The translations under genes and the position numbers were made by a program. From the sequence record NC_105619.1: a stretch of DNA of 48,980 nucleotides; one strand, given 5' to 3'. Numbering within the stretch: the first letter of the stretch is position 1; the number at the start of each line of letters is the position of its first letter. The stretch comes from a phage. The notes below the pieces were generated by a model. The model had not been told where the DNA came from, searched no databases, and saw nothing but the letters and a program-made list of their open reading frames with translations. Shown here one piece after another: positions 1 to 48,966 of this stretch.

Positions 1-525
1 ATGAGTGAACCTAAGAACGCTCCTGTAGTTCAGGGAGGTAATTTCAAAGAGCTATACAAGAAAAAGTTCGGCACTGTTCTTGCTAAAAACCGGGCAATGA
101 CGCCTGAGCAATTATTCGCTCTGTCAGTGAAGTATTTCGAATGGGCAGAGGATAATGCAATCAAGGCGTCGGAATCAGCCAGCTTTCAGGGTGGCGTTTA
201 TGAATCTCTTGTTCATAAGCCGCGAGTGTTTACGTGGACAGGATACAGGCTATTCATCGGTGCAAGTGAGGCCGCGATCATTAAGTGGAAGCGAGAAGAG
301 GAATATAGCGAGGTTATGGAGTTCGTGGAATCTGTAATCAATGAGCAAAAATTCCAACTTGCCGCCAACGGTGTTATTAACGCCTCCTTTATCGGCAAGG
401 ATCTCGGGATCGATAAGCCAGCCTCAATCAATATCGAAAACTCGGCAGCTTCCGCATCGACCTCTGTCGCCACCACAGAGGAAGCAATGAAAGAGGCAGT
501 AAACAGTATTCTTGACATGCTTTAA
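1..525 (+). CDS. terminase small subunit (putative)
   Basis: ORF abutting the large terminase gene; its RBS AAGAGG lies at window end ~48969-48974; no diagnostic motif seen, assignment by position only. Confidence 0.45.
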   Translation: MSEPKNAPVVQGGNFKELYKKKFGTVLAKNRAMTPEQLFALSVKYFEWAEDNAIKASESASFQGGVYESLVHKPRVFTWTGYRLFIGASEAAIIKWKREEEYSEVMEFVESVINEQKFQLAANGVINASFIGKDLGIDKPASINIENSAASASTSVATTEEAMKEAVNSILDML

Positions 526-6653: not shown

Positions 6654-6691
6654 CACAAAAACACTTTGACGCTTTAACAAAAAGTGCTATT
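6647..6691 (-). promoter_or_regulatory. reverse-oriented copy of the TAGCA-N5-TGTTA promoter module (antisense to late genes)
   Basis: On minus strand AATAGCACTTTTTGTTAA + 22 nt + TATGAC (preceded by TGt). Confidence 0.35.
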
Positions 6692-6696
6692 ATTGA

Positions 6697-6724
6697 AGCC
6701 GTGAACATAATCACGGCTTTTTTA
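6697..6724 (+). terminator. rho-independent terminator
   Basis: AGCCGTGA-acataa-TCACGGCT followed by TTTTTT. Confidence 0.7.
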
Positions 6725-9692: not shown

Positions 9693-10361
9693 ATGCACTT
9701 ACCAAATGGCGCGCAAATTTTCGTGGAAACCTCTCGCGGAGAAGAGATCGAGGCGACCGCTGTCACTAACGCAAAAAATCCTGTTGCTACAGTTGAATCT
9801 AAGGGAGACTTGGCAAAAGGTGATTACGTTATTGTAACTCAGTCAACTTGGGCTAAGATGGTTAGTCGAGTACTAATTGTTACTGACGCTCAGGAAACAA
9901 GCATTACTCTCGCTGGAATTGACACTACTGATACTCTTGTTTTCCCGGCTGGCGGTACAATGAGCTTTGCAAAAATTACTGGCTGGACTGAGATTCCTTG
10001 CGTACAGGAGATTGGTCAGGACGGCGGCGAGCAGCAGTATTACACTTATCAGTGTTTGTCTGACGATAAAGAGCAGCAGATCCCGACGTTTAAGTCTGCA
10101 ATCTCGCTAACGTACACCTTCGCGCACGAATTTGATAACCCTATCTATCCTATTCTGCGTAAGCTGGATTCTTCTGGTCAGGTAACTGCGGTTCGGATGT
10201 ATGTTCCAAAAGCGAACGAGATGCGCATGTGGGCTGGTATCTTGTCTTTTAACGACATTCCATCTACGCAAGTAAACGAAATGGAAACGGTACAACTCGC
10301 CGTATCCCTGAAGGGTGATTTCACTTTCGTTTCATCCGCTCTGGCATCACCTGGTGCCTAA
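9693..10361 (+). CDS. major tail protein
   Basis: 222 aa ORF directly upstream of the chaperone and tape-measure genes; followed by strong terminator. Confidence 0.6.
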   Translation: MHLPNGAQIFVETSRGEEIEATAVTNAKNPVATVESKGDLAKGDYVIVTQSTWAKMVSRVLIVTDAQETSITLAGIDTTDTLVFPAGGTMSFAKITGWTEIPCVQEIGQDGGEQQYYTYQCLSDDKEQQIPTFKSAISLTYTFAHEFDNPIYPILRKLDSSGQVTAVRMYVPKANEMRMWAGILSFNDIPSTQVNEMETVQLAVSLKGDFTFVSSALASPGA

Positions 10362-10373
10362 ATCATATCCACA

Positions 10374-10408
10374 GGGGGCTTGCGCCCCCTTATTCATTTC
10401 TGTAAAAT
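10374..10408 (+). promoter_or_regulatory. terminator hairpin with embedded promoter (TTGCGC-N17-TAAAAT)
   Basis: GGGGGC-TTGC-GCCCCC hairpin; TTGCGC spans loop and stem, exactly 17 nt, then TAAAAT preceded by TG. Confidence 0.5.
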
Positions 10409-10409
10409 C

Positions 10410-10454
10410 ATCGTATCAACTTTGCACTATTCTCTTTTAACAAAAAGTGCTATT
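10410..10454 (-). promoter_or_regulatory. reverse-oriented copy of promoter module (antisense to major tail protein gene)
   Basis: Minus strand AATAGCACTTTTTGTTAAAA + 22 nt + TACGAT (TGa-TACGAT). Confidence 0.35.
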
Positions 10455-10474
10455 AACCAATCAGGAGAAATATC

Positions 10475-10792
10475 ATGGCTAAATTTAATTTCGTTCTTGG
10501 TCAACTTCCAGACTTCAAACTTCCAGTCACCTTCACCATGCCTAACGGTGAAGATGCAACGATCATTTTCACTGTACGCCACCTTTCCAGTAAAGAAGTT
10601 CAGGATATGTATGCCAACCAGGGAGAAATGAACGACAGCGAGTTCATTACCAAGATCGCGTCAGGATGGAACCTTGAAGAAGAATTTAACGAAGAAAATG
10701 CGCGAAAACTGGTTCAGTATTATCCTTCAGCAGCGTACAACCTGACAGCGACTTACATCAAGGCTCTCGCCGGACACCGCGCAAAAAACTAA
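10475..10792 (+). CDS. tail assembly chaperone (lambda gpG-like)
   Basis: Small ORF upstream of tape measure ending GCA AAA AAC TAA, i.e. slippery heptamer A_AAA_AAC at 10783-10789. Confidence 0.65.
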   Translation: MAKFNFVLGQLPDFKLPVTFTMPNGEDATIIFTVRHLSSKEVQDMYANQGEMNDSEFITKIASGWNLEEEFNEENARKLVQYYPSAAYNLTATYIKALAGHRAKN

Positions 10793-11109
10793 AAAAGGCG
10801 GTCTATCTGTTATATCAGAAGCCGCCAACAGAGGAACAATTGCGATCGGTTGGCTTAAGTCTTTCCGACTATGAAGACGAGGAGCCTGAAACGATAATTG
10901 GCGACGCTGAAATGGTGAAGGCTTGGAATGTTTTTACATCAATGCTCACTCAGTGGAGAAGTTCAGGAGCTGGCGCTTACGGTCTTGATTATAATGTTTT
11001 GCCTATGTTGTTTAAAATCTATAAAATAGAAGATGAAGAACTGGCATTGCAGGACGTTAGGATCATGGAAGCGAAAGCGCTTGAAATGATTGCTAAGCAG
11101 AATAACTAA
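10789..11109 (+). CDS. -1 frame extension of tail chaperone (gpGT-like fusion product via programmed frameshift)
   Basis: -1 frame is open from the slippery site and continues ..KKLKKAVYLLYQKPPTEEQLRSVGLSLSD.. into track ORF 10840..11109. Confidence 0.55.
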   Translation, partial: LKKAVYLLYQKPPTEEQLRSVGLSLSDYEDEEPETIIGDAEMVKAWNVFTSMLTQWRSSGAGAYGLDYNVLPMLFKIYKIEDEELALQDVRIMEAKALEMIAKQNN

Positions 11110-11131
11110 GCCGCCGTTTGGCGGTTTTTTT
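11110..11131 (+). terminator. rho-independent terminator
   Basis: CCGCC-gttt-GGCGG followed by TTTTTTT. Confidence 0.6.
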
Positions 11132-11148
11132 GTATATAAGGGGGGTAT

Positions 11149-14022
11149 ATGGTTGATAAGGTAGCAGGTCTATCGCTTGATGTTGATGTGTCGACAGTAC
11201 AGCGCGCCGTCAAGTCATTGAAAGAGTTTTCAAAAGCTAACGACCAAGCCGCTGACTCTATGGGGTCTTTAATCAATGAGGCCGAGGTTGCAAAACAGAA
11301 GGCTAAAGAACACGCTGAGCAACTTAAGCGCCAGCGCAAAGAGTACGAGGCTGTAGAAAAGGCAATCGATCCTACAGTATCAAAAATGGAAAGGCTGAAG
11401 ATTGCATCTCAGCAGCTTGATAAACTCTGGCAAAAGGGCTTTGTTCCAGATGAAACATTTTTCCGTTTGGGTGAAATGCTGGACATGCAAAATGCAAAAC
11501 TTGCTCGCAGCCGGGCCATGCTTACTGAAGAGGGGCAGGCAGCATTGCAGGAAGCGAAAGCAAAAGAGCAGGCAGCAGCGAAAAACAAAGCGTTCATGGA
11601 TTCCCTTAACAGTCAGGTTAACGCTATTGGCAAAACTCACGCAGAGTTAATGGAACTGAAAGCGGCTCAGCTTGGGATATCAAATGAAGCAGCGCCACTG
11701 ATCGCAAAACTGAAAGAGCAGGGTCGAGCCATGAATGCCGCAGGTATTAGCGCGGGGCAATATAGGCAGGCAATGCGAATGCTTCCTGCACAGATTACCG
11801 ACGTCGTTACATCTCTTGCGTCCGGTATGCCAGTTTGGATGGTTGCCATCCAGCAAGGCGGTCAAATTAAGGACTCGTTCGGAGGGATCGGGAATACGTT
11901 TAAGGTATTGCTCAGCTATATTAATCCGGTCACAGTTGGCGTTGGTGTTCTTGTCGGCTCTTTAGGTCTTCTTGCGAAAGCCGGTTATGACTCTTACAAG
12001 TCAATAACTGATATGCAGAAGGCTCTTGTTGAGACTGGAGGTTACGCAGGAGTCACGGCTGAAGAACTTGATTCTGTTGCTAAAAAGGTGGCTCAGACGA
12101 GCAACTCAACAATTTCAAGCATTCGTGAGATTGTTACTGAACTTGCCAGTACGGGGAAGTATACGCGAGAGCAGATTCAGAACATCACAAAGGCTACCGC
12201 TGAGTGGTCGACAGTAACCGGAAAATCAGCAAGTAAAATCATCGCTGAGTTCGATAAAATCGCAAGCGATCCTGTAAAGGGTCTGGCTAAACTTAACGAG
12301 CAATACAATTTTTTAGAAAAAGGACAGCTGACATACATCGATACTCTAAGCCGTACTAAGGGTGAAACAGAGGCAGTGTCTGAAGCCACGAAATTATTCG
12401 CCGATGTAATGGAAAAACGAATGAAGTCGATCGCTGATAATGCTACCCCTCTGGAAAAAATGTGGAAAGATATTAAGCAATGGGCTTCTGATGCGTGGGG
12501 ATGGGTTGGGGATCATACGCTCGGAGCGTTAAACCTGATTATTGACGTAGTTCAAGGTACGGTAATTCAGGTGAAAATGATTCTTGCTAAGGGTGATGAG
12601 TACATCTCAAACTTTATCGCATCTGCAATTAAGGCTACACAGTCTCTGCCTGGCGTGAGTGATTTTGGTGCTGATGTACTAAAGGAACAGGAGAATATTG
12701 TAAAAAGTTCTCGTGACAACTACGATCAGTTAGCTTCAGAGCTTGATGCCATTAACGCCCGTGTTGAAAAAGGTGAGATGGGATACATTGAAGCAATGAA
12801 GCAGCGCCGTACTCTTGAAAAGCAGTATAGCCAGGAAACTAAGGACGCTATCAAGGAAGAAGCTAAAGAGATCGAAAAGCGAAACCGTGAACGAAATAAG
12901 CAGTCGAAAATTTTACGCTCACCTACAGAGCAATTCGATAAGGAGTTAATTTCACTCAAAGCGCAGCTTAAGGTTTTGCAGGAGCACAAGGAGATCGGGC
13001 AAAAAATATCAGCACAGAGAAAGGCGCTTTTTACGACTGAGGCTACAATTTCTGTTCTTCGAGAAGCTAGTTCTAAGCGTCAGCTATCTGCGGAAGAAAA
13101 AGCACTACTTGCAAACCAAGAGAAGGTTTTAGAGCTTGCGAAACAAAAGGCTGAGATTGGCGATCAGATTGTTAAGCAGCAGCAGTTGAACGCACTTACC
13201 GATAAATCACTGAAATTTGTCAATGATTTGACGGCAGCTACAGAGCAGCTAAACGCGTCTCGCGGGATGAGCACCCGAGAAATGGAACGACAAGCGGAAC
13301 TGGCTAAGATCACCACTGACTATATTAATGCAGGTGGCAGCGAAGGAGATGAAAAACTCCAGAAAATGATCAAGGCACAAAATGATTACTATGCTGCGGA
13401 AGATGCCAAGCGTGCTGACTGGTTAGCTGGTGCTGAAAGCGCATTTGCAGATTACGGCGATTCTGCAATGGATATGTACGGCAACGTGTATGATATCGCG
13501 TCAAGTTCACTTAACGGAATGAGTGATATGATGACCCAATTCCTTACTACAGGTAAGGCAAATTTTGAGGACTTTGCGAAAAATATCATTAGCATGATTA
13601 TCAAGATGATTGCTCAGATGGTAATCTTCAATACGATCTCAGGCATGACGGGAGGTAAGACATGGAGTTTTGCAAGTGGATTGACCTCTAGCGCTTCTGC
13701 GGCATCACAGGCAACTCCTACGCCTGCCGTCTCTGGTTTTAGGTCTTTATCTTCAGGCGTTGCCGTTACCTCGCTTGCTGCCGCTGCGGGTAGTGTTGCA
13801 ACCTCTGGATTTAACGCATCTAAATCCGCACCGAAGGCAGTGAACCAGTCAGCAGGCGGGACGGTCGTTGACGTTAGTGGAATGGAGGTTAGAGTTGACA
13901 ACGGCTCAGATCCGAGGGGGATTTCTCAGGGTGTAGAAATGATGTTCAAAAAAATGATTCGTGAGTCTTGTTCGCAGGGCGGCGAGGTTTATAATTACAT
14001 TCAGGAAAAAACAGGAGGTTAA
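11149..14022 (+). CDS. tail tape measure protein
   Basis: 957 aa, long coiled-coil-rich N-terminal part, hydrophobic Gly/Ala/Ser-rich C-terminal segment, position after chaperone. Confidence 0.9.
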
Positions 14023-14024
14023 TA

Positions 14025-14378
14025 ATGGCGACACTTGACACTTTTGGCTGGTGTACGCAGGTTCAAGGGGGCGGCGGCTCCCTTACCACTACCAACAATG
14101 ACCGCTCAATCCAGTTTGGTAACGGCTACATGCAGCTTGCATCGTCTGGATTTAATACCACTCGACGCGAGTATTCAGTTGTCTATGCCGGGGAAGATTT
14201 CATGGCTGTTTACGACTTCTGTGACTCTCACCGCATTAAGCCGTTCGCATGGACGCCGCCGGACGGTAAGATCGGGATATGGGTAGTAAAGCCTAACAGT
14301 TTGGGAGCGAAGCCAGTATCGCGCGACGTGATGGAGATTAACGTCACGTTTATGGAGCAATTTACATCTATGGAGTAA
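14025..14378 (+). CDS. minor tail protein (lambda gpM-like)
   Basis: 117 aa directly after tape measure, first of M-L-K-I-J order. Confidence 0.65.
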   Translation: MATLDTFGWCTQVQGGGGSLTTTNNDRSIQFGNGYMQLASSGFNTTRREYSVVYAGEDFMAVYDFCDSHRIKPFAWTPPDGKIGIWVVKPNSLGAKPVSRDVMEINVTFMEQFTSME

Positions 14379-14392
14379 CGCCATATAACAAA

Positions 14393-14428
14393 AGCCCGCC
14401 TTGCGCGGGTTTTTTTGTAGCTGTAGAA
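14393..14428 (+). promoter_or_regulatory. terminator hairpin with embedded promoter (TTGCGC-N17-TAGAAT)
   Basis: CCCGC-CTTGC-GCGGG hairpin + T7 run; TTGCGC at 14400-14405, 17-nt spacer, TAGAAT at 14423-14428. Confidence 0.55.
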
Positions 14429-14457
14429 TGGTTGCAGGTAAACAAGAGGAAAAATCA

Positions 14458-15240
14458 ATGAGCGAAAACAAAAAACTTTATGATGAAGAAAGCGGAAAGA
14501 GCCTGTTTCATAACTGCCTTCAGTCACTATATCCGGGAGAGATAATCACTCTCATCGAAGTTGATGGTAGTAAGTTCGGCGCTCAGGTGTACCGATTCCA
14601 CGGTGAGAATATCCAGTACACTCCAGAAGAAATCATGCAGGCCCAGCAAACTGGAACGCTACCGCCGAAGGAAATTACATTCCGTGGCGAGAAATACGGG
14701 GCGCGACCGTTCGGTATATCCGGGATCTCGTTTGACAGCTCCGGAAAGGCAACAAAACCACAATTAACGGTGGCAAACATTGATAGTCGAGTATCTGCGA
14801 TGATTCGTGCATATAACGGACTAATGCAAGCTAAGGTGACTATCTGGATAACTCAGCGTGAGCTTATTAACTCCGATGGCTCAATCGCTGATGGAGCTTA
14901 CCGCAAACTGGTATACTATATCGAGCGTCCGAACTATGTTGATAAAAGCGTTGCACGGTTCGATCTCACATCACCTTACGATATGGACGGCATCATGATT
15001 CCGTCTCGACTCACGCAAAGCGTATGCTATTGGGCGCAGCGTGGATGGTATAAAACCGGGAATGGCTGCGGATATAACGGGCAAAACGGTTACTTTGATA
15101 AAGACAATAATCCGGTAGATGATCCTTCACTGGACTTTTGCCCGGGTACGGTAACGGCCTGCCGCCTGAGATTCGGTGCAAACAATGAATTGGATTTTGG
15201 TGGTTGCGCTGTCGCTTCACTACAGAGGAAAAATCAATGA
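14458..15240 (+). CDS. minor tail protein (lambda gpL-like)
   Basis: Start at internal ATG (residue 20 of track ORF) with RBS AAGAGGAAAAA; Cys-rich C-terminus; position. Confidence 0.65.
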   Translation: MSENKKLYDEESGKSLFHNCLQSLYPGEIITLIEVDGSKFGAQVYRFHGENIQYTPEEIMQAQQTGTLPPKEITFRGEKYGARPFGISGISFDSSGKATKPQLTVANIDSRVSAMIRAYNGLMQAKVTIWITQRELINSDGSIADGAYRKLVYYIERPNYVDKSVARFDLTSPYDMDGIMIPSRLTQSVCYWAQRGWYKTGNGCGYNGQNGYFDKDNNPVDDPSLDFCPGTVTACRLRFGANNELDFGGCAVASLQRKNQ

Positions 15241-15971
15241 TTAGTGCAAAAATTAAACTTGAAATTATGACTCACGCTCAAGAAGAATACCCACGCGAAT
15301 GCTGCGGGGTAGTCACCCAAAAGGGCCGAGTGCAAAAATACCATCGCGTTGATAATGTACATCGCGATCCTGATAATCACTTCATGATGGACGCAGTGCA
15401 ATACGCATGTATTGAGGACGACGCTGACTCAACCACGATCGCAATTGTCCACAGCCACACCGGGGACGGAGCTACAACTCTTCCCAGCGCTCACGATACG
15501 TGCATGTGTAATGAGATGGAAGTGACCTGGATTATTGTTAGCGTACCGGAAGGAGATATGCGATTTGTGAATCCAGAGAAATTACCTCTGATTGGTCGTC
15601 CGTGGTCATTAGGATCATTCGACTGTTACGGTCTTGTTATGGCGTGGCACAAAGAGCACGGCGTAGAGTTACGCGATCGCCGATTGAATTTTGAATGGTG
15701 GAAACCGGAGTACGGAATTAATCTCTATCAGGATTATTACAAGCAAGATGGATTCGTTGAGATTCCAGATCAGAATAACCCATCATTCGGGGATATGGTA
15801 ATCATGCAGATAGGGCAAAATGTTCCGGTATGGAACCACGCAGGCATTTACCTGGGTGATAATCAGATCTTACATCACGCCTTTGGCAAACTTTCGCGAC
15901 GTGATATCTATTCCGGCTGGTATCAGGATCATACTGTTTTAATTGTTCGCCATAAGGATCTTAAATTATGA
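15237..15971 (+). CDS. tail assembly protein (lambda gpK-like; JAMM/MPN + NlpC/P60 domains)
   Basis: JAMM motif E..HSHTGDGATTLPSAHD in N-terminal half; C-terminal half with Cys/His residues consistent with NlpC/P60; overlaps gpL stop. Confidence 0.7.
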   Translation: MISAKIKLEIMTHAQEEYPRECCGVVTQKGRVQKYHRVDNVHRDPDNHFMMDAVQYACIEDDADSTTIAIVHSHTGDGATTLPSAHDTCMCNEMEVTWIIVSVPEGDMRFVNPEKLPLIGRPWSLGSFDCYGLVMAWHKEHGVELRDRRLNFEWWKPEYGINLYQDYYKQDGFVEIPDQNNPSFGDMVIMQIGQNVPVWNHAGIYLGDNQILHHAFGKLSRRDIYSGWYQDHTVLIVRHKDLKL

Positions 15972-16567
15972 ATGATGTAAAAGTAATCAAATTATCAGGT
16001 TCACTTGGAAGGCGCTTCGGCGTCTTTCACAGATTCGCCGTTGACTCTTACCCGGAAGCTATCCGGGCGCTATCCAGTCAGGTGGATGGATTCAAAGAAT
16101 ACATGCAAAGCGAGATAGGATCTCGTAGCAAGTTTGCAATATTTGTGGATGGCGTTAACGTTGGACACCATGAAGAGGAAAAATTCAGGTGCGCGAAAGA
16201 GATAAGAATCGTACCGATCCCTACTGGCTCTAAGACAGGAGGTCTATTCCAGGTTGTATTGGGCGCGGCAATAATGGTTGCAGCATTCTATACTGGCGGC
16301 GCGTCTCTGGCTTTAATGGGCACAATGTCCTCGTCTCTGTTTATGATGGGCGGCGCTATGGTGCTGGGCGGCGTGATGCAGATGATTTCACCGCAGCCGG
16401 GTGGCGCAAACTTTGAAGTTCAATCAAGCAAGAATAAACCTTCGTACGCGTTCGGCGGTGCTGTCAATACGACGGCGGCGGGATACCCTCTCCCGGTCCC
16501 GTATGGATATCGCGCCGGAGGTGGCGCAACTTTCTCAGCAGGTTCTTATGCCGAGGATATGAGTTAA
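15968..16567 (+). CDS. tail assembly protein (lambda gpI-like)
   Basis: Position after K-like gene; Gly/Ala-rich hydrophobic C-terminal region. Confidence 0.6.
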   Translation: MNDVKVIKLSGSLGRRFGVFHRFAVDSYPEAIRALSSQVDGFKEYMQSEIGSRSKFAIFVDGVNVGHHEEEKFRCAKEIRIVPIPTGSKTGGLFQVVLGAAIMVAAFYTGGASLALMGTMSSSLFMMGGAMVLGGVMQMISPQPGGANFEVQSSKNKPSYAFGGAVNTTAAGYPLPVPYGYRAGGGATFSAGSYAEDMS

Positions 16568-16572
16568 AATTA

Positions 16573-16608
16573 ACCCGCCTTGCGCGGGTTTTTTTTCGCC
16601 TGTATAAT
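16573..16608 (+). promoter_or_regulatory. terminator hairpin with embedded promoter (TTGCGC-N17-TATAAT)
   Basis: Identical hairpin CCCGCCTTGCGCGGG + T8; TTGCGC 16580-16585, 17-nt spacer, consensus TATAAT 16603-16608. Confidence 0.6.
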
Positions 16609-16644
16609 GAGTCCACCGATAAATAGCACAAAAAGGTAAACATC

Positions 16645-19600
16645 ATGATTCAAAAAGTGATAAGTGGATCTAAGGGTGGGTCACAGAAGCCTCATAACCC
16701 AGTTGAGATGGAAGACAATCTAATCTCAATCAACAAAATCAAAATCCTGTTAGCTGTATCTGATGGTGAAATTGACGAAACATTCAGCCTAAAGCAGTTG
16801 ATGTTTAACTCAGTTCCGGTGCAAAACGAGGATGGATCGTTCAACTTCGAAGGGGTAAAGGCTGAGTTCAGGCCGGGAACTCAGACGCAGGAATACATCA
16901 AGGGCATGGAAGATAGCTCCAGCGAGGTAACTGTAAATCGTGAGGTTACTACCGATAACCCATACACGATCTCAGTAACCAACAAAACGCTGTCGGCAAT
17001 CCGTATAAAAATGTTCATGCCTCGCGGCGTACGAATTGAAAGTAACGGTGATAAAAATGGCGTAAGAGTTGAGTATGAGGTGCAACAAGCTGTTGATGGC
17101 GGCTCGTTTGAGACGGTGCTCACCGATGTAATCGAAGGCAAAACAATGTCAGGTTACGATCGAAGCCGTCGCGTAAACCTTCCGAACTTCAACAATCAGG
17201 TAATATTCAGAGTTGTTCGAAAGACTCCAGACTCTAACGACTCTAACGTTGTTGATGCGATCCAGGTAAAGAGCTATGCCGAGGTGATTGATGCCAAATT
17301 CCGTTACCCTCTGACAGGTCTTCTTTTCGTCGAGTTCGACTCGAAGATGTTCCCAAACCAGTTACCTACGATCTCAATTCGTAAGCGCTGGAAGATTGTA
17401 AACGTTCCATCAAACTACGATCCGGAATCACGAACCTACAACGGCAATTGGGATGGGACTTTCAAGAAGGCGTGGACTAACAACCCGGCATGGGTTCTAT
17501 ACGACCTGATGATTAATCAGCGCTACGGGCTGGATCAGAAGGAGCTTGGAATCTACGTCGATAAATGGGCGCTCTATGAGGCGGCGCAATATTGCGACCA
17601 GATGGTTCCCGACGGGAAAGGTGGTACGGAGCCTCGCTACCTTTGCGACGTGATAATTCAGTCACAGACTGATGCGTACAAGGTGATTCGAGATATTTGC
17701 TCAATATTCCGTGGTATGAGCTTCTGGAATGGTGAAAGCATCTCGGTAATCATCGACAGACCGCGTGAGCCTGCGTACATCTTCACTAACGACAACGTTG
17801 TTAATGGTGACTTCTCCTATACGTTCGCAAGCGAAAAGAGTATGTACACGACGTGTAACGTGATGTTTGACGACGAACAAAACATGTATCAACAGGACGT
17901 TGAGCCAGTATTCGATCGTGAGGCGACTCTGCGGTTCGGTAATAACGTAACCAGCATTACAGCGATAGGTTGCACGCGTCGAAGCGAGGCTAACCGACGA
18001 GGGCGATGGATTCTGAAGACCAACCTTCGCAGCACTACGGTAAACTTCGCGACCGGGCTTGAGGGTATGATCCCGACAATAGGTGATGTTGTGGCAATAG
18101 CCGACAACTTCTGGTCAAGCAACTTGACTATGAACCTGTCAGGGCGCTTGCTCGAAGTGTCTGGAAGCCAGATTTTCTTGCCGTTCCGGGTGGATGCGCG
18201 CGCAGGTGACTTTATTATCGTAAATAAGCCAGATGGCAAGCCCGTGAAGCGCACAATCTCAAGTGTTAGTGCGGATGGTAAGACTATAGAGATTAACATC
18301 GGATTTGGATTTCCTGTGAAGCCTAACACGGTATTCGCTATCGACCGCACCGACATTGCGTTACAACAGTACGTCGTGACAAAAATCGATAAGGGCGATG
18401 ATGACGAGGAATTTACCTACAAAATCACGGCGGTGGAGTACGATCCTAACAAGTACGATGAGATTGATTACGGAGTTAACATCGACGACCGACCGACGAG
18501 CATCGTTGAACCAGATCAGATCCCTAGACCGGAAAATGTTCAAGTATCCTCAGAGTCGAGAATCGTCCAGGGGATGAGCGTAGAAACGATGATTGTTAGC
18601 TGGGATAAAGTGCCGTACGCAGTTTTCTATGACGTACAGTGGCGAAAGGATAACGGCAACTGGCAAAATGTACCTCAGACGGCAAACAAAGAGGTTTACG
18701 TTGAGGGTATTTACGCTGGCAACTATCAGGTTCGCGTTCGCTCCGTAGCTGGTTCCGGTACGACTTCAGGATGGTCAAATATCGTAGCTGCGACGCTGAC
18801 TGGCAAGCAAGGTGAGCCGGGTCGACCGATTAACCTTACAGCTACGGATGATGTTGTTTTTGGTATCCGTACAAAATGGGGGTTCTCTGATGGTTCTGGA
18901 GATACGGCCTATACAGAGTTGCAACAGTCACCAGATGGAACAGTGGATAACGCAAGTTTGCTTTCTTTGATTCCGTACCCGCAGCATGAGTATTATCACT
19001 CACCGATGCCTGGAGGGAATATTGTGTGGTATCGTGTAAGGACGGTTGATAGGATCGGTAACGTGTCTCAGTGGACTGATTTTGTCAGAGGTATGGCATC
19101 AACAAACGTTGACGATATCATTGGGGAGATTTCTGTCGATATCGAAAACTCGCCGGGTTACGAGTGGCTTGTTGATAACGCAACCGACAACGCGGCGCAG
19201 AACGCAGCTAACGCAGAGGCAGCAATAGAAAACGCGCTCGCCAATGACAAAGACGCGATCTACATGAAGAAGGAGAACGGAAAACGAAAAGCTGAGTACA
19301 CGAAATCACTGAAACTTATTGCTGATGAGACGCAGGCGAGAGTGACGGCGATCGAGCAATTGAAGGCAAGTTTTGGCGATCAGATTAGCGCTAGCAACAG
19401 CGAATTGCGTGAAGTTATCGCAACTGAGACTGGAGCGCTATCGCGTGAAATTGACCAACTCAGGGCAGAGATTGGTGATGATATCCAGGCAAGTTTGACT
19501 GATATCAGAGAGGCTATAGCAAACGAGACTGAGGCGAGAACGCAAGCTGACTTGTCGTTAAGCGCGAGGCTTGGGAATAATGAGGCAGCACTTTCTCAAA

Positions 19601-20094
19601 AACTTGATTCGTGGAGCAATGCGGATTCGACTGGTGCAATGTACGGCGTCAAGCTCGGTCTGAAGTATAACGGCCAAGAATACAGTGCAGGCATGGCTAT
19701 GTCTCTGATTGGTTCCGGAGCTGCGGTTAAGGCGCAGATTTTGTTTGAGGCATCACGATTTGCCATCATGACTGGAATGAATGGTCAGACTCAGTATCCC
19801 TTCGTTGTTGAGAATGGCCAGGTTATTCTAAGTAGCGCGATCATCAAGGATGGATTTATTACTAACGCCATGATTGGTAACGCGATTCAGTCTAACAATT
19901 GGGATGGAAATCAAGGGTGGTATATTAACAAGAATGGTGCAGCTTACTTCATGAACGCAACCGTAAGGGGTGCTTTGTATGCAGATAACGGATCGTTTGC
20001 ATTCAACGGGACAAACAATACGGTTCAGATAAACAATAACGGCATCACGGTTAACCTACCTAACGGGGGCCGAGTGGTTGTTGGTGTCTGGTAA
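16645..20094 (+). CDS. central tail fibre / host specificity protein (lambda gpJ-like)
   Basis: 1149 aa; fibronectin-III-like segment (..YDVQWRKDNGNWQNV..YQVRVRSVAGSG..); last large gene of tail operon. Confidence 0.85.
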   Translation: MIQKVISGSKGGSQKPHNPVEMEDNLISINKIKILLAVSDGEIDETFSLKQLMFNSVPVQNEDGSFNFEGVKAEFRPGTQTQEYIKGMEDSSSEVTVNREVTTDNPYTISVTNKTLSAIRIKMFMPRGVRIESNGDKNGVRVEYEVQQAVDGGSFETVLTDVIEGKTMSGYDRSRRVNLPNFNNQVIFRVVRKTPDSNDSNVVDAIQVKSYAEVIDAKFRYPLTGLLFVEFDSKMFPNQLPTISIRKRWKIVNVPSNYDPESRTYNGNWDGTFKKAWTNNPAWVLYDLMINQRYGLDQKELGIYVDKWALYEAAQYCDQMVPDGKGGTEPRYLCDVIIQSQTDAYKVIRDICSIFRGMSFWNGESISVIIDRPREPAYIFTNDNVVNGDFSYTFASEKSMYTTCNVMFDDEQNMYQQDVEPVFDREATLRFGNNVTSITAIGCTRRSEANRRGRWILKTNLRSTTVNFATGLEGMIPTIGDVVAIADNFWSSNLTMNLSGRLLEVSGSQIFLPFRVDARAGDFIIVNKPDGKPVKRTISSVSADGKTIEINIGFGFPVKPNTVFAIDRTDIALQQYVVTKIDKGDDDEEFTYKITAVEYDPNKYDEIDYGVNIDDRPTSIVEPDQIPRPENVQVSSESRIVQGMSVETMIVSWDKVPYAVFYDVQWRKDNGNWQNVPQTANKEVYVEGIYAGNYQVRVRSVAGSGTTSGWSNIVAATLTGKQGEPGRPINLTATDDVVFGIRTKWGFSDGSGDTAYTELQQSPDGTVDNASLLSLIPYPQHEYYHSPMPGGNIVWYRVRTVDRIGNVSQWTDFVRGMASTNVDDIIGEISVDIENSPGYEWLVDNATDNAAQNAANAEAAIENALANDKDAIYMKKENGKRKAEYTKSLKLIADETQARVTAIEQLKASFGDQISASNSELREVIATETGALSREIDQLRAEIGDDIQASLTDIREAIANETEARTQADLSLSARLGNNEAALSQKLDSWSNADSTGAMYGVKLGLKYNGQEYSAGMAMSLIGSGAAVKAQILFEASRFAIMTGMNGQTQYPFVVENGQVILSSAIIKDGFITNAMIGNAIQSNNWDGNQGWYINKNGAAYFMNATVRGALYADNGSFAFNGTNNTVQINNNGITVNLPNGGRVVVGVW

Positions 20095-27332: not shown

Positions 27333-27377
27333 TATAGCACTTTTTGCTAAAAACGTTTACTTTATGCCGTGTATTAT
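27333..27377 (+). promoter_or_regulatory. early promoter module (TAGCACTTTTTGCTA box + 22 nt + TATTAT) overlapping divergent minus-strand promoter
   Basis: Arms AACGTTTAC/GTAAACGTT flank the -10; minus strand reads TTGAAT-N17-TATAAT over the same -10. Confidence 0.5.
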
Positions 27378-27408
27378 AGCGTAAACGTTACAACGATTCA
27401 AAGGATTA

Positions 27409-29846: not shown

Positions 29847-29886
29847 CACTTTTTGTTAAAACTGCCGGAATGGAATCTGGCATTAT
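29842..29886 (+). promoter_or_regulatory. early promoter module upstream of dam
   Basis: AATAGCACTTTTTGTTAAAAC + 22 nt + CATTAT; box overlaps TAG stop of upstream gene. Confidence 0.5.
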
Positions 29887-29913
29887 TATTTCACCAAAAC
29901 GAGAGGACTAAAA

Positions 29914-32863: not shown

Positions 32864-32897
32864 TTGATAAAAACGCCCGAAGGGATTCGGGTATAGT
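32855..32897 (+). promoter_or_regulatory. early promoter module
   Basis: CGCACTAATTGATAAAAAC + 22 nt (CCCGAA-GGGA-TTCGGG hairpin) + TATAGT. Confidence 0.5.
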
Positions 32898-32928
32898 AAC
32901 CACATCAAAAACAAAGAGGCTACATATC

Positions 32929-33105: not shown

Positions 33106-33127
33106 CAATATCATTCATCACCTTACA

Positions 33128-33157
33128 GGCTGGCATGATTTACATGCTGGCCTTTTT
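33128..33157 (+). terminator. putative terminator
   Basis: GGCTGGCATG-attta-CATGCTGGCC imperfect hairpin followed by TTTTT. Confidence 0.45.
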
Positions 33158-33224
33158 GCGTTGTATCAAGTAAATTTGAAGGTTAAAATCGACTCACTTG
33201 TTCAAAAAAATATATGGTGAGATT

Positions 33225-36933: not shown

Positions 36934-36960
36934 TCCTGATTGGTTATCTTGAATAAGGCC

Positions 36961-37005
36961 ACTTTATCAAATGACCTTACGGCAATATTAACAAATCGTG
37001 CTATT
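36961..37005 (-). promoter_or_regulatory. early promoter module (minus strand)
   Basis: AATAGCACGATTTGTTAATA + 22 nt + TAAAGT; near-duplicate of module at 43568. Confidence 0.45.
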
Positions 37006-39027: not shown

Positions 39028-39060
39028 TTTGTTTTTCCTCAATCTCGTTTCGATGAGGTA

Positions 39061-39105
39061 ATTATGCCAAATCACACCGATCGAGTTTTAACAAAAAGTG
39101 CTATC
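39061..39105 (-). promoter_or_regulatory. early promoter module (minus strand)
   Basis: GATAGCACTTTTTGTTAAAAC + 22 nt + CATAAT; arms TCGAT/ATCGA flank -10. Confidence 0.5.
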
Positions 39106-41265: not shown

Positions 41266-41305
41266 CACTTTTTGTTAAAACCGGATCGGGGTATCTTGAT
41301 ATAGT
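41261..41305 (+). promoter_or_regulatory. early promoter module
   Basis: AATAGCACTTTTTGTTAAAAC + 22 nt + TATAGT (TGa extended); arms GGGGTA/TACCCC flank -10. Confidence 0.55.
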
Positions 41306-41343
41306 TACCCCATCGAAACGAGATACCAATCAGAGGAATCACC

Positions 41344-42288: not shown

Positions 42289-42328
42289 CACTTTTTGTTA
42301 AAACGCGATCATGTGGTTGCGATATAGT
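42284..42328 (+). promoter_or_regulatory. early promoter module
   Basis: AATAGCACTTTTTGTTAAAAC + 22 nt + TATAGT; arms ATGTGGTT/AACCACAT flank -10. Confidence 0.55.
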
Positions 42329-42359
42329 AACCACATCGACAACGAACGAGGACGAGAAC

Positions 42360-43572: not shown

Positions 43573-43612
43573 CACGAATTGCTAAACCTTCCGCAAGGCC
43601 ATTTGATATAGT
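43568..43612 (+). promoter_or_regulatory. early promoter module
   Basis: GATAGCACGAATTGCTAAACC + 22 nt + TATAGT; arms AAGGCCA/TGGCCTT. Confidence 0.55.
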
Positions 43613-43652
43613 GGCCTTATTGAAGCATGGCAACCAATCAGAGGAATCAGCT

Positions 43653-45238: not shown

Positions 45239-45265
45239 AACCTATCAAGGGGAATGCGCTATGAT
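45221..45265 (+). promoter_or_regulatory. early promoter module
   Basis: AATAGCACGAATTGCTAAAAC + 22 nt + TATGAT; arms GGGGAAT/ATTCCCC. Confidence 0.55.
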
Positions 45266-45355
45266 TCCCCTACACCAACAAACGAGGAATCACTAATGAA
45301 ACACTTAATTTGCATTGAAACGCCTAACGATGAATACACTCTTCACGGAATATGA

Positions 45356-45742: not shown

Positions 45743-45785
45743 TAGCACGAATTGCTAAAACTTGCTCAAGGGCATTTGTTAGAAT
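45741..45785 (+). promoter_or_regulatory. early promoter module
   Basis: GATAGCACGAATTGCTAAAAC + 22 nt + TAGAAT (TGt extended); arms AAGGGCA/TGCCCTT. Confidence 0.55.
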
Positions 45786-45825
45786 GCCCTTCGTTGAGTT
45801 AAGCAACCAATCAGAGGAATAAATC

Positions 45826-47118: not shown

Positions 47119-47158
47119 CACGAATTGCTAAAACGTCGATGTGGTGATTTGATATAGT
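47114..47158 (+). promoter_or_regulatory. early promoter module
   Basis: AATAGCACGAATTGCTAAAAC + 22 nt + TATAGT; arms GTCGATG/CATCGAC. Confidence 0.55.
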
Positions 47159-47191
47159 TACCTCATCGACAACCAAGAGAGACAAATCGAA

Positions 47192-48906: not shown

Positions 48907-48966
48907 CCCGCTACGGCGGGTTTTTTTATGCCTGCAATATGGTAAAATAGCACTAAATGTTAAACG
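48907..48966 (+). promoter_or_regulatory. terminator hairpin (CCCGC-TACG-GCGGG + T7) followed by CAATAT/TAAAAT and a copy of the box, upstream of terminase small subunit
   Basis: Same hairpin arms as late modules but loop TACG; AATAGCACTAAATGTTAAAC at 48945-48966 then RBS. Confidence 0.45.

Follow-up and report, generated by a model that had tools for sequence, protein, structure and literature searches.

Predicted sigma-70-type promoters embedded in terminator hairpins at late-gene junctions of a T1-like phage

Promoter-early stem-loops (PeSLs) are found in the T4-like phages RB49/phi1, PST and nt-1 (Arbiol et al. 2010, PMC2839356; Comeau et al. 2014, PMC4122927). In these elements the stem-loop overlaps the -35 element, sits between -35 and -10, or overlaps the -10 box, and both promoter and terminator activity have been demonstrated experimentally (PMC2839356; PMC4122927). 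The modules described here resemble PeSLs in that each is a small intergenic cassette, running from stop codon to Shine-Dalgarno sequence, in which a putative sigma-70-like promoter overlaps a stem-loop. This likeness is one of arrangement, and sequence homology is not claimed. PeSLs belong to early genes in hyperplastic ORFan regions, where they are credited with gene shuffling and where many sequence-conserved copies flank indels and ORFans, whereas the T1-type modules stand before tail and terminase genes, as four copies at fixed core late-gene junctions, family-wide. The T1-type modules also differ in having canonical U-tracts and a -35 TTG inside the loop itself. PeSL stem-loops terminate upstream transcription; in the T1-type modules termination is predicted.

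T1-like phages (Drexlerviridae) are common coliphages, Klebsiella phages and candidates for therapy, and they depend on the host RNA polymerase. For the late region of T1, 'transcriptons' were proposed by Roberts, Martin and Kropinski in 2004, as summarised in PMC11447400. By the definition given in that summary, late genes are bracketed by rho-independent terminators, with an RpoD promoter for each unit, and the modules described here correspond to it in sequence and conservation only. Current T1 records annotate the terminators of all four modules and carry no promoters at them. The -35-in-loop geometry, the 17-nt spacing and the family-wide conservation were not found in the T1 records or in the PMC11447400 summary of transcriptons. 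The late promoters of T1-like phages have been elusive, and in TLS a re-analysis of 2024 detected just three promoters in the entire genome. In the literature searched we found no 5'- or 3'-end mapping (Term-seq, S1), transcriptome or start-site data for T1-like phages.

The stretch analysed, NC_105619.1 (48,980 nt, referred to as the window), is a complete T1-like (Tunavirus) genome. In the whole window, searches for tRNAs and known RNA families gave no hits. The tail region contains three modules, M1 to M3, with the following features.

10374..10389, + strand: M1 terminator hairpin GGGGGC-TTGC-GCCCCC, separating the major tail gene (9693-10361) from the tape-measure chaperone gene (10475 onwards)
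10380..10408, + strand: M1 embedded promoter (predicted), -35 TTGCGC 10380-10385, 17-nt spacer, -10 TAAAAT 10403-10408, start A10415
14395..14416, + strand: M2 terminator CCCGC-CTTGC-GCGGG followed by T7, separating the M-like (14025-14378) from the L-like (14458-15240) tail tip gene; T1 records mark a terminator here
14401..14429, + strand: M2 embedded promoter (predicted), TTGCGC 14401-14406, 17-nt spacer, TAGAAT 14424-14429, start A14436
16574..16596, + strand: M3 terminator CCCGC-CTTGC-GCGGG followed by T8, with the I-like gene (15968-16567) before it and the J-like tail fibre gene (16645-20094) after it; annotated in T1
16580..16608, + strand: M3 embedded promoter (predicted), TTGCGC 16580-16585, 17-nt spacer, consensus TATAAT 16603-16608, start A16615

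The major tail gene is the V side of the V-G junction, and the tape-measure chaperone gene lies downstream.

A sequence-only reading of this DNA had described G/C hairpins with TTGCGC in the loop and 3' arm and a -10 hexamer exactly 17 nt further on. Direct reading confirmed this at M1, M2 and M3: TTGCGC spans the loop and the 3' arm, and the -35 TTG is in the hairpin loop at these three sites. The hairpins had also been called near-identical and followed by a T-run. This holds for M2 and M3, which have the same hairpin proper (14395-14409 and 16574-16588), followed by T7 and T8 respectively, and which are identical over the 22 nt CCCGCCTTGCGCGGGTTTTTTT, as had been claimed. M1 has only the TTGCGC centre in common with the other modules and its arms differ. 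Its U-tract is broken in this genome (UUAUUCAUUU / TTATTCATTT, 10390-10399) and is T6-T7 in most other clades, so that an uninterrupted U-tract is only partly present at M1 here. The M1 site is already annotated as a terminator in RefSeq T1 and SA12KD, and the hairpin at this junction is kept across relatives with compensatory stem changes. The partial termination and graded expression proposed in the earlier reading are conjectural; M2 and M3 look like strong terminators from their sequence. When folded as RNA, all four modules, including M4 described below, give stable hairpins with energies of -12.7 to -14.6 kcal/mol and z of -2.8 to -4.4, the values for M1 being -14.6 kcal/mol and -3.4. 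A repeat finder grouped M2, M3 and M4 as family D8, aligned in register along 45 nt.

The -10 boxes of M1 to M3 all have the form TAnnnT, with A at -11 and T at -7, and a purine follows about 7 nt past the box (A10415, A14436 and A16615, each exactly 7 nt beyond the hexamer). A start at A14436 would give M2 a 22-nt leader with a Shine-Dalgarno sequence. The -35 TTGCGC matches the consensus at three of six positions, namely TTG, at exactly 17 nt. A standard consensus scan, with a threshold of at least 4/6 matches in each hexamer, called no promoter at M1 to M3; this is probably why annotations lack these promoters, and we do not take the miss as evidence against them. The pattern TTG-N20-TANAAT occurs nine times in the window against 2.64 expected, with nine or more in none of 100 shuffles, and three of the nine matches have their TTG within a terminator loop. 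The TG reported before each hexamer does abut it, at -14/-13, which is one position off the canonical extended -10 (TG at -15/-14). We rejected this TG as an extended -10, an optional feature of promoters, on account of its wrong register and of its replacement by ccg, gtc or gcc in other clades. A canonical TGn-extended -10 is present at the M-L and I-J junctions in several other clades.

A fourth module, M4, precedes the small terminase gene (terS).

48907..48927, + strand: M4 terminator CCCGC-TACG-GCGGG followed by T7, in front of the small terminase gene (window 1-525); annotated in T1
48940..48948, + strand: M4 likely promoter (predicted), extended -10 TGgTAAAAT, sharing bases with the 5' end of a DR copy; start near A48955

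The hairpin proper is 48907-48920, and it has the arms and the TACG loop that the earlier reading assigned to a fourth copy. The module is real, but its -10 had been mis-assigned to CAATAT (48935-48940). We rejected CAATAT because it varies (TAATAT, GAGTAT, AAATAT), and TGgTAAAAT, 8 nt downstream, is the more likely box and the one conserved in divergent clades, where TGnTAAAAT, TGgTATAAT or TGgTATACT is kept before terS. The M4 loop changes freely in close relatives (TACG, TTCG, TCCG, CTCG), and across clades the terS module combines a UNCG loop with a true TGn-extended -10 about 20 nt past the stem. A TGn-extended -10 needs no -35, which leaves the loop free to be a UNCG tetraloop. The terS module would thus follow the same terminator-then-promoter logic, with the TGn-extended -10 as its promoter.

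Conservation was examined in about 80 related Drexlerviridae phage loci, which gave 124 unique junction sequences with tail protein L identity down to 64%. The sequences in all family counts are kin, and p-values overstate their independence. Hairpin, T-run and -10 box recur at all three junctions (V-G, M-L and I-J), the box reading TAAAAT, TAGAAT, TATAAT, TACAAT, TAATAT, CATAAT or TATGAT. The stems flip through compensatory changes while TTG stays in the loop, 16-17 nt before the -10: four consensus pairs show 3-15 double-sided changes each and the loop is fixed. The spacer between TTG and -10 is 17 nt (or 16) in 41/41 V-G, 23/34 M-L and 34/49 I-J unique module-keeping sequences. In these same sequences the stems are 5 to 13 bp long, and 30 to 66 nt separate the -10 box from the start codon. 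At I-J the box is TATAAT or TACAAT in all 49. Exceptions were found: a Klebsiella-phage clade has TAGCCT in place of TTG at I-J, and the V-G module is wholly absent from a few clades.

Position-wise counts were made on 48 representatives, less than 85% identical to each other and aligned with the -10 box as anchor. Among the positions that this anchoring does not force, -12 is T in 44, -9 is A in 43 and -8 is A in all 48. The -35 positions are T in 41, T in 43 and G in 38, and +1 is A in 30. Positions -16/-15 and -5 to -3 carry about 0.1 bit. The claim that a promoter is built into the terminator hairpin is strongly supported at M1 to M3 by this comparison with T1-like genomes, in which the -10, the loop TTG at 16-17 nt and the A at +1 persist, the stems co-vary and the adjacent spacer is random.

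Ordinary internal terminators (attenuators) of phage structural operons have the same hairpin and U-tract after a highly expressed gene. Unlike M1 to M3, they have UNCG-type loops and no -10 box and lead straight into a Shine-Dalgarno sequence. One such terminator serves as an internal control, and a composite of the opposite order is also present.

11108..11134, + strand: promoter-less terminator before the tape-measure gene, with a Shine-Dalgarno sequence and ATG directly after it
6666..6720, + strand: composite before the major capsid gene, promoter TTGACG-16-TGcTATTAT at 6666-6693 and then a hairpin at 6695-6720

In other clades the loops of the pre-tape-measure terminator are UACG, UUCG and similar. 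Loop TTG is present in 35 of 37 coupled modules and in 8 of 32 control terminators (T-H and terS), a difference with a Fisher p of about 1e-9 for sequences that are not fully independent. The capsid-gene hairpin starts about 1 nt past the -10 box, which places the predicted start (~6700) inside its 5' arm. This composite, with its near-consensus sigma-70 promoter, is conserved family-wide, and the T1 record has both promoter and terminator there.

These comparisons bear on another account of the modules, that they are terminators only. The TAnAAT box would then act at the RNA level, for instance in processing or as a leader element of the downstream gene, or would be A+T-rich spacer of the sort that commonly follows terminators, and the annotations of T1, SA12KD and TLS do carry terminators only at the modules. 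We consider this account rather improbable, for the distance from box to loop is constant and that from box to start codon varies (24-66 nt), and the spacer positions next to the box are unconstrained. The A at +7 and the TGn variants suit a promoter, and promoter-less terminators in the same genomes proceed to the Shine-Dalgarno sequence with no such box.

The anatomy of the sequence, the stability of the hairpins, their conservation and covariation throughout the family, and the way they differ from control terminators are best explained if each module is an intrinsic terminator and a sigma-70-type promoter sharing the same roughly 45 bp, and we regard this reading as probable. At the RNA level the G+C hairpin and U-tract would stop transcripts arriving from upstream late genes. 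At the level of double-stranded DNA, TTGCGC of the loop and 3' arm would be a weak -35 element, followed by a 17-nt spacer that includes the T-run and by a good -10 hexamer, with restart at the A 7 nt beyond. The tail region would then consist of separate units (G-T-H-M, L-K-I, J and so on), each with its own promoter strength, and not of one read-through operon. That RNA polymerase terminates and initiates at the modules, how efficiently, and when in infection, we infer from sequence. An unregulated sigma-70 promoter alone does not account for late timing.

The DR repeat family has been published for TLS and T1, with function unknown (PMC11447400). Copies lie near the modules, among them the following two.

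16623..16641, + strand: DR copy ATAGCACAAAAAGGTAAAC in the J gene leader, +9 to +27 of the M3 promoter, overlapping the Shine-Dalgarno sequence
10435..10453, - strand: DR copy in inverted orientation, in the leader that follows the M1 promoter (repeat family D5)

The DR at I-J is conserved in most clades, and the one at V-G is found in several clades and missing in others. The repeat was considered as a core part of the late promoters and rejected: three modules have a copy downstream of them or overlapping them, but M2 and whole clades have none. The early DR promoters of this genome have PeSL-like hairpins, placed between -35 and -10 or over the -10 box.

T4 late promoters require only a -10-type box. 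The boxes described here might likewise be genuine and be read by an RNA polymerase that is modified or assisted by a phage late factor, with the loop TTG incidental. Such a factor would suit the poor -35 (3/6), the late timing, which calls for some explanation, the operator-like DR copies adjoining three of the four modules, and the several helix-turn-helix proteins that T1 encodes. We nevertheless think it unlikely. Conservation within the hairpin is highest at the loop TTG, which lies at the 16-17 nt typical of sigma-70 and is absent precisely where a TGn-extended -10 can do without a -35. The box TAnAAT is the sigma-70 consensus. In the related TLS genome no RNA polymerase or sigma gene was found, and its authors expect the host apparatus to be used (PMC11447400).

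A linker role in gene exchange has been proposed for PeSLs (PMC2839356; PMC4122927). The modules could similarly be kept mainly as recombination linkers for the exchange of tail-gene cassettes, especially of the host-range gene J, their transcription signals being secondary. The 22 identical nt of M2 and M3 fit this, and the I-J module is better conserved among distant relatives (73-84% identity) than the flanking coding DNA (63-73%). Identity also jumps at M1 or M3 in a few relatives (L014, L012, L010), but in 12 close relatives compared in 200-nt windows the mosaic breakpoints are scattered through genes, with no clear excess at modules. Across clades only the positions relevant to function are kept (stem pairing, TTG, T-run and -10), not the overall sequence, and the modules occupy fixed sites of the core operon and not variable regions. 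A primary role as linkers is in our view very improbable.

The overlap of terminator and promoter may itself have a function. After RNA release in vitro, E. coli RNA polymerase remains bound to the template, in many cases together with sigma-70, and starts again from promoters close by (Kang et al. 2020, PMC6978380; Harden et al. 2020, PMC6978322; Song et al. 2024, PMC11347151). The modules share with the templates of these studies an intrinsic terminator closely upstream of a promoter of the same sense. Those templates were engineered and studied in vitro only; in the modules terminator and promoter would physically overlap, and we predict that no diffusion would be needed. The U-tract covers about -26 to -19, so a polymerase releasing its RNA would stand on the embedded promoter. 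Sigma-70 is often retained, and the loop TTG and the -10 could be re-engaged, with restart 19-20 nt downstream. That the same polymerase restarts without leaving the DNA, making each module a terminate-and-restart device, is a fairly unlikely extension. If true, downstream expression would be a fixed, sequence-set fraction of the upstream flux. Each restart would reset the message by giving it a new 5' end and leader, and would spare polymerase, and the modules would be a natural in vivo case of a recycling and reinitiation so far seen only in single-molecule assays.

For the T1 family, we predict from sequence that hairpin-embedded promoters, a known type of phage regulatory cassette, have been missed by current annotations. 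If real, they would account for the transcription of tail and packaging genes despite a strong terminator every few genes, and they would define the late transcription units. Phage engineering and synthetic biology would gain from them compact 45-bp 'stop-and-restart' parts, and they would be a natural template for asking in vivo whether a terminating polymerase reinitiates at an overlapping promoter.

The four terminator hairpin modules of the window, M1-M3 in the tail region and M4 upstream of the small terminase gene (terS), are most likely composite terminator/promoter elements. The window, 48,980 bp, covers the whole genome of a T1-like siphophage (Tunavirus, Drexlerviridae), in which position 1 is the terS start codon. 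The tail region is approximately 95% identical to that of phage T1, DELF2, Sfin-1 and pSf-2. Gene names around the modules were assigned from ORF positions and the T1 annotation.

Genes around the modules
9693-10361, major tail protein V
10475-11109, tape-measure chaperones G/T
11149-14022, tape measure H
14025-14378, M-like tail tip gene
14458-15240, L-like tail tip gene
ending at 15971, K-like gene
15968-16567, I-like gene
16645-20094, J-like tail fibre gene

Hairpin modules
M1 (V-G junction): hairpin GGGGGC-TTGC-GCCCCC, 10374-10389; -35 TTGCGC, 10380-10385; spacer 17 nt; -10 TAAAAT, 10403-10408; A10415 7 nt past the box
M2 (M-L junction): hairpin CCCGC-CTTGC-GCGGG, 14395-14409, then T7; TTGCGC, 14401-14406; spacer 17 nt; TAGAAT, 14424-14429; A14436 7 nt past the box
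M3 (I-J junction): hairpin identical to M2, 16574-16588, then T8; TTGCGC, 16580-16585; spacer 17 nt; TATAAT, 16603-16608; A16615 7 nt past the box
M4 (before terS): arms as M2 and M3, loop TACG, 48907-48920, then T7; no -35; -10 first read as CAATAT, 48935-48940

All elements described in the sequence-only reading are present on direct reading of the sequence, with three details corrected. The hairpins had been called near-identical; M2 and M3 share 22 identical bases and M4 has the same arms, but M1 shares only the hairpin centre and its arms differ. A T-run was claimed for each of M1-M3, which holds for M2 and M3 but not for M1, whose U-tract is interrupted in the window genome. The TG preceding these three hexamers does not form an extended -10, as it abuts the hexamer at -14/-13 and is not in the canonical register. 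All four RNA hairpins are stable on folding (-12.7 to -14.6 kcal/mol). Matches to TTG-N20-TANAAT number nine in the window, where 2.6 would be expected; none of 100 shuffles gives as many, and in three of the nine matches the TTG falls in a late-region terminator loop. M1-M3 are missed by a generic promoter scan (at least four matches in each hexamer) because their -35 matches only TTG.

Conservation was examined in viral contigs, at 80 loci surrounding the L-like gene (L protein identity 100% down to 64%), with the three junctions found by tblastn. In nearly every clade all three carry a G+C hairpin and T-run, followed 6-13 nt past the stem by a -10-type hexamer (TAAAAT, TAGAAT, TATAAT, TACAAT, TAATAT, CATAAT or TATGAT). 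We aligned 48 representatives (<85% identical) on this hexamer and scored conservation at unforced positions. These are T at -12 (44/48), A at -9 (43/48) and A at -8 (48/48); TTG at -35 to -33 is kept in 41, 43 and 38 of the 48, and the base 7 nt past the hexamer is A in 30. Bases immediately flanking the hexamer on either side hold about 0.1 bit. The spacer between TTG and hexamer is 17 or 16 nt in 41/41 unique V-G sequences keeping the module, 23/34 at M-L and 34/49 at I-J. The distance from hexamer to start codon varies at V-G (30-66 nt), so the hexamer is tied to the hairpin and not to the gene start. A role for the box as an RNA-level element is less well supported.

The stems show compensatory changes (GGGGGC/GCCCCC, GGGGCG/CGCCCC, GCCGCC/GGCGGC, GGCGGGGC/GCCTCGCC), with 3-15 double-sided changes at each of four consensus stem pairs. 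A terminator usually tolerates most change in its loop; in these modules, on the contrary, the loop is the best-conserved part of the hairpin. The alternative that the modules are chiefly recombination linkers is less well supported. In 12 close relatives, identity profiled in 200-nt windows jumps at places scattered through the genes, with no clear excess at the modules. The V-G module is absent from a Klebsiella-phage clade (L055, L071, L072) and from locus L040, which have only a Shine-Dalgarno-bearing spacer of 31-45 nt; sister lineages keep it, so this module can be lost. Phage T1 has TTGCAC in place of TTGCGC at V-G (window 10384), which breaks one stem G-C pair and leaves TTG intact, and its current GenBank record no longer annotates a terminator there. 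In one locus (L008, IMGVR_UViG_2974611450) the I-J hairpin is destroyed (CCCGCTCCGCATTCATTTTTTTT) and neighbouring genes have shifted reading frames; V-G and M-L are also concerned, and these anomalies most likely reflect poor assembly rather than biology.

Other strong late-region terminators lie at 2150, 5840, 8047 and 11108. In each of them the next gene's Shine-Dalgarno sequence and start codon follow hairpin and T-run directly, which leaves no room for a promoter. Among late-region terminators only M1-M4 stand clear of the next gene, by 50-85 nt, and this gap opens with a -10-like box. The terminator at 11108-11134, which separates the chaperone frameshift product from the tape-measure gene (T-H junction), served as a promoter-less control. 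It is conserved across the same phages without a -10 box, has loops such as UACG, UUCG, GUUU and UUUU (UNCG-type loops occur family-wide), and probably attenuates tape-measure expression.

Divergent clades retain AACCCGC-UNCG-GCGGGTT with a T-run ahead of terS and, about 20 nt past the stem, an extended -10 (TGgTATAAT, TGgTATACT or TGnTAAAAT). The fourth copy proposed before terS stands as to arms and loop, but its promoter box does not: CAATAT varies among relatives and was rejected. Because the extended -10 is conserved there, the likely M4 -10, judged by comparison of sequences, is TGgTAAAAT at 48940-48948. A loop TTG is found in 35/37 coupled modules and 8/32 controls (T-H and terS; Fisher p ~1e-9, which overstates independence as the sequences are related). 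It therefore occurs where the -10 needs a -35 partner and is missing at extended -10 promoters and promoter-less terminators. At three modules conservation strongly supports the promoter-in-terminator idea, and the promoter of the fourth is corrected; the sequence-only interpretation as a whole is partly supported.

A near-consensus sigma-70 promoter precedes the major capsid gene family-wide (TTGACG or TTGCAC, 16-17 nt, TGcTATTAT or TATCAT).

Other promoter/terminator pairs
6666-6720, strong promoter TTGACG-16-TGcTATTAT before the major capsid gene, then hairpin and T-run (6695-6720) from ~1 nt past the -10; the spacer is an inverted DR repeat (a published repeat family)
33127-33189, strong terminator (33127-33153), then 8 nt on TTGTAT-17-TAAAAT, upstream of the holin/lysis genes (33198-); non-overlapping

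The capsid arrangement is kept in approximately 60 relatives, at capsid identity down to 57%. Transcripts from upstream genes would end at the 6695-6720 hairpin; the promoter's own should escape it or carry a shortened 5' hairpin, because the predicted start lies inside the 5' arm. No polymerase or sigma gene was found in the genome of the related phage TLS by its authors (PMC11447400). This, with the capsid promoter, makes use of host sigma-70 at the modules plausible; use of the -10-like box by a phage-modified polymerase is less well supported.

The DR repeat (ATAGCACnnnTTGnTAAAA, 19-21 nt) has 20 or more copies in the window, and its core AATAGCAC is found 15 times where 1.7 occurrences would be expected. 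The repeat has been described before in TLS and T1, without an assigned function (PMC11447400).

DR copies and associated inverted repeats
41262, 42285, 43569, 45222, 45742, 47115 (+), DR examples
36504, 37004, 38639, 39104 (-), DR examples
16623 (+), 48947 (+), 10453 (-), 6690 (-), late-region DR
27353-27395, 29862-29901, 32873-32912, 41281-41320, 42304-42343, 43588-43627, 45241-45280, 45761-45800, 47134-47173 (+), inverted repeats at early DR promoters
36946-36985, 39046-39085 (-), inverted repeats at early DR promoters

With its palindromic centre TAGCA-N5-TGCTA, the repeat looks like an operator. Early copies lie at about -50 to -32 relative to TATAGT-type -10 boxes, so that their TTG stands 22 nt away from the hexamer and does not qualify as an ordinary -35. 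Of the late copies, one lies in the J leader, one overlaps the terS -10 and one is inverted after M1. Ten of the 12 early DR promoters tested have an inverted repeat, significant at z -2 to -6, that encloses the -10 box or lies just upstream; its arms vary from copy to copy and it has no U-tract. A translation-initiation box, ACCAATCAG(A)GGA(A)T, is repeated before many early and late genes (10457-10472, 41325-41341, 43633-43649, 45806-45822).

The T1 and SA12KD records already list all four terminators, and the homologous TLS hairpins are terminators T28, T42, T46 and T49 of the 2024 re-annotation (PMC11447400). No promoter is annotated at the module sites in T1, SA12KD or TLS. In the whole TLS genome its authors identified just three promoters, and they could not confirm transcriptons; the idea that the T1 late region is made up of such 'transcriptons', units flanked by terminators and with RpoD promoters inside, is credited there to the 2004 T1 genome paper (PMC11447400). 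Among named kinds, the nearest is the PeSL (promoter-early stem-loop) cassette of T4-like phages, in which sigma-70-like promoters overlap stem-loop terminators; in one subclass the stem-loop covers the -35, and both activities have been demonstrated experimentally (PMC2839356, PMC4122927). The T1-type modules, known here from sequence, appear to work alike. Unlike PeSLs they are not in hyperplastic early regions and are not associated with indels, and we therefore do not class them as such. PeSL subclasses also share the architecture of the early DR promoters with inverted repeats.

In the composite reading, hairpin and U-tract would terminate the upstream transcript at the RNA level. At the level of double-stranded DNA, loop and 3' arm would act as a weak -35, with the T-run in the spacer, and the good -10 box would direct restart at the A seven bases on. 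Restarted transcripts would carry leaders of 22-60 nt with a Shine-Dalgarno sequence, and the tail genes would fall into three expression units, G-T-H-M, L-K-I and J onwards. Termination efficiency and timing, like the 'partial' termination and 'graded' expression proposed in the sequence-only reading, are a matter of inference. In single-molecule assays, E. coli polymerase that has stopped at an intrinsic terminator can stay on the DNA and start again from a promoter close by (PMC6978380, PMC6978322, PMC11347151), which suggests a reading of the overlap as a terminate-and-restart device that we regard as rather improbable. The analysis supplies predicted missing late promoters for a widely used phage family.
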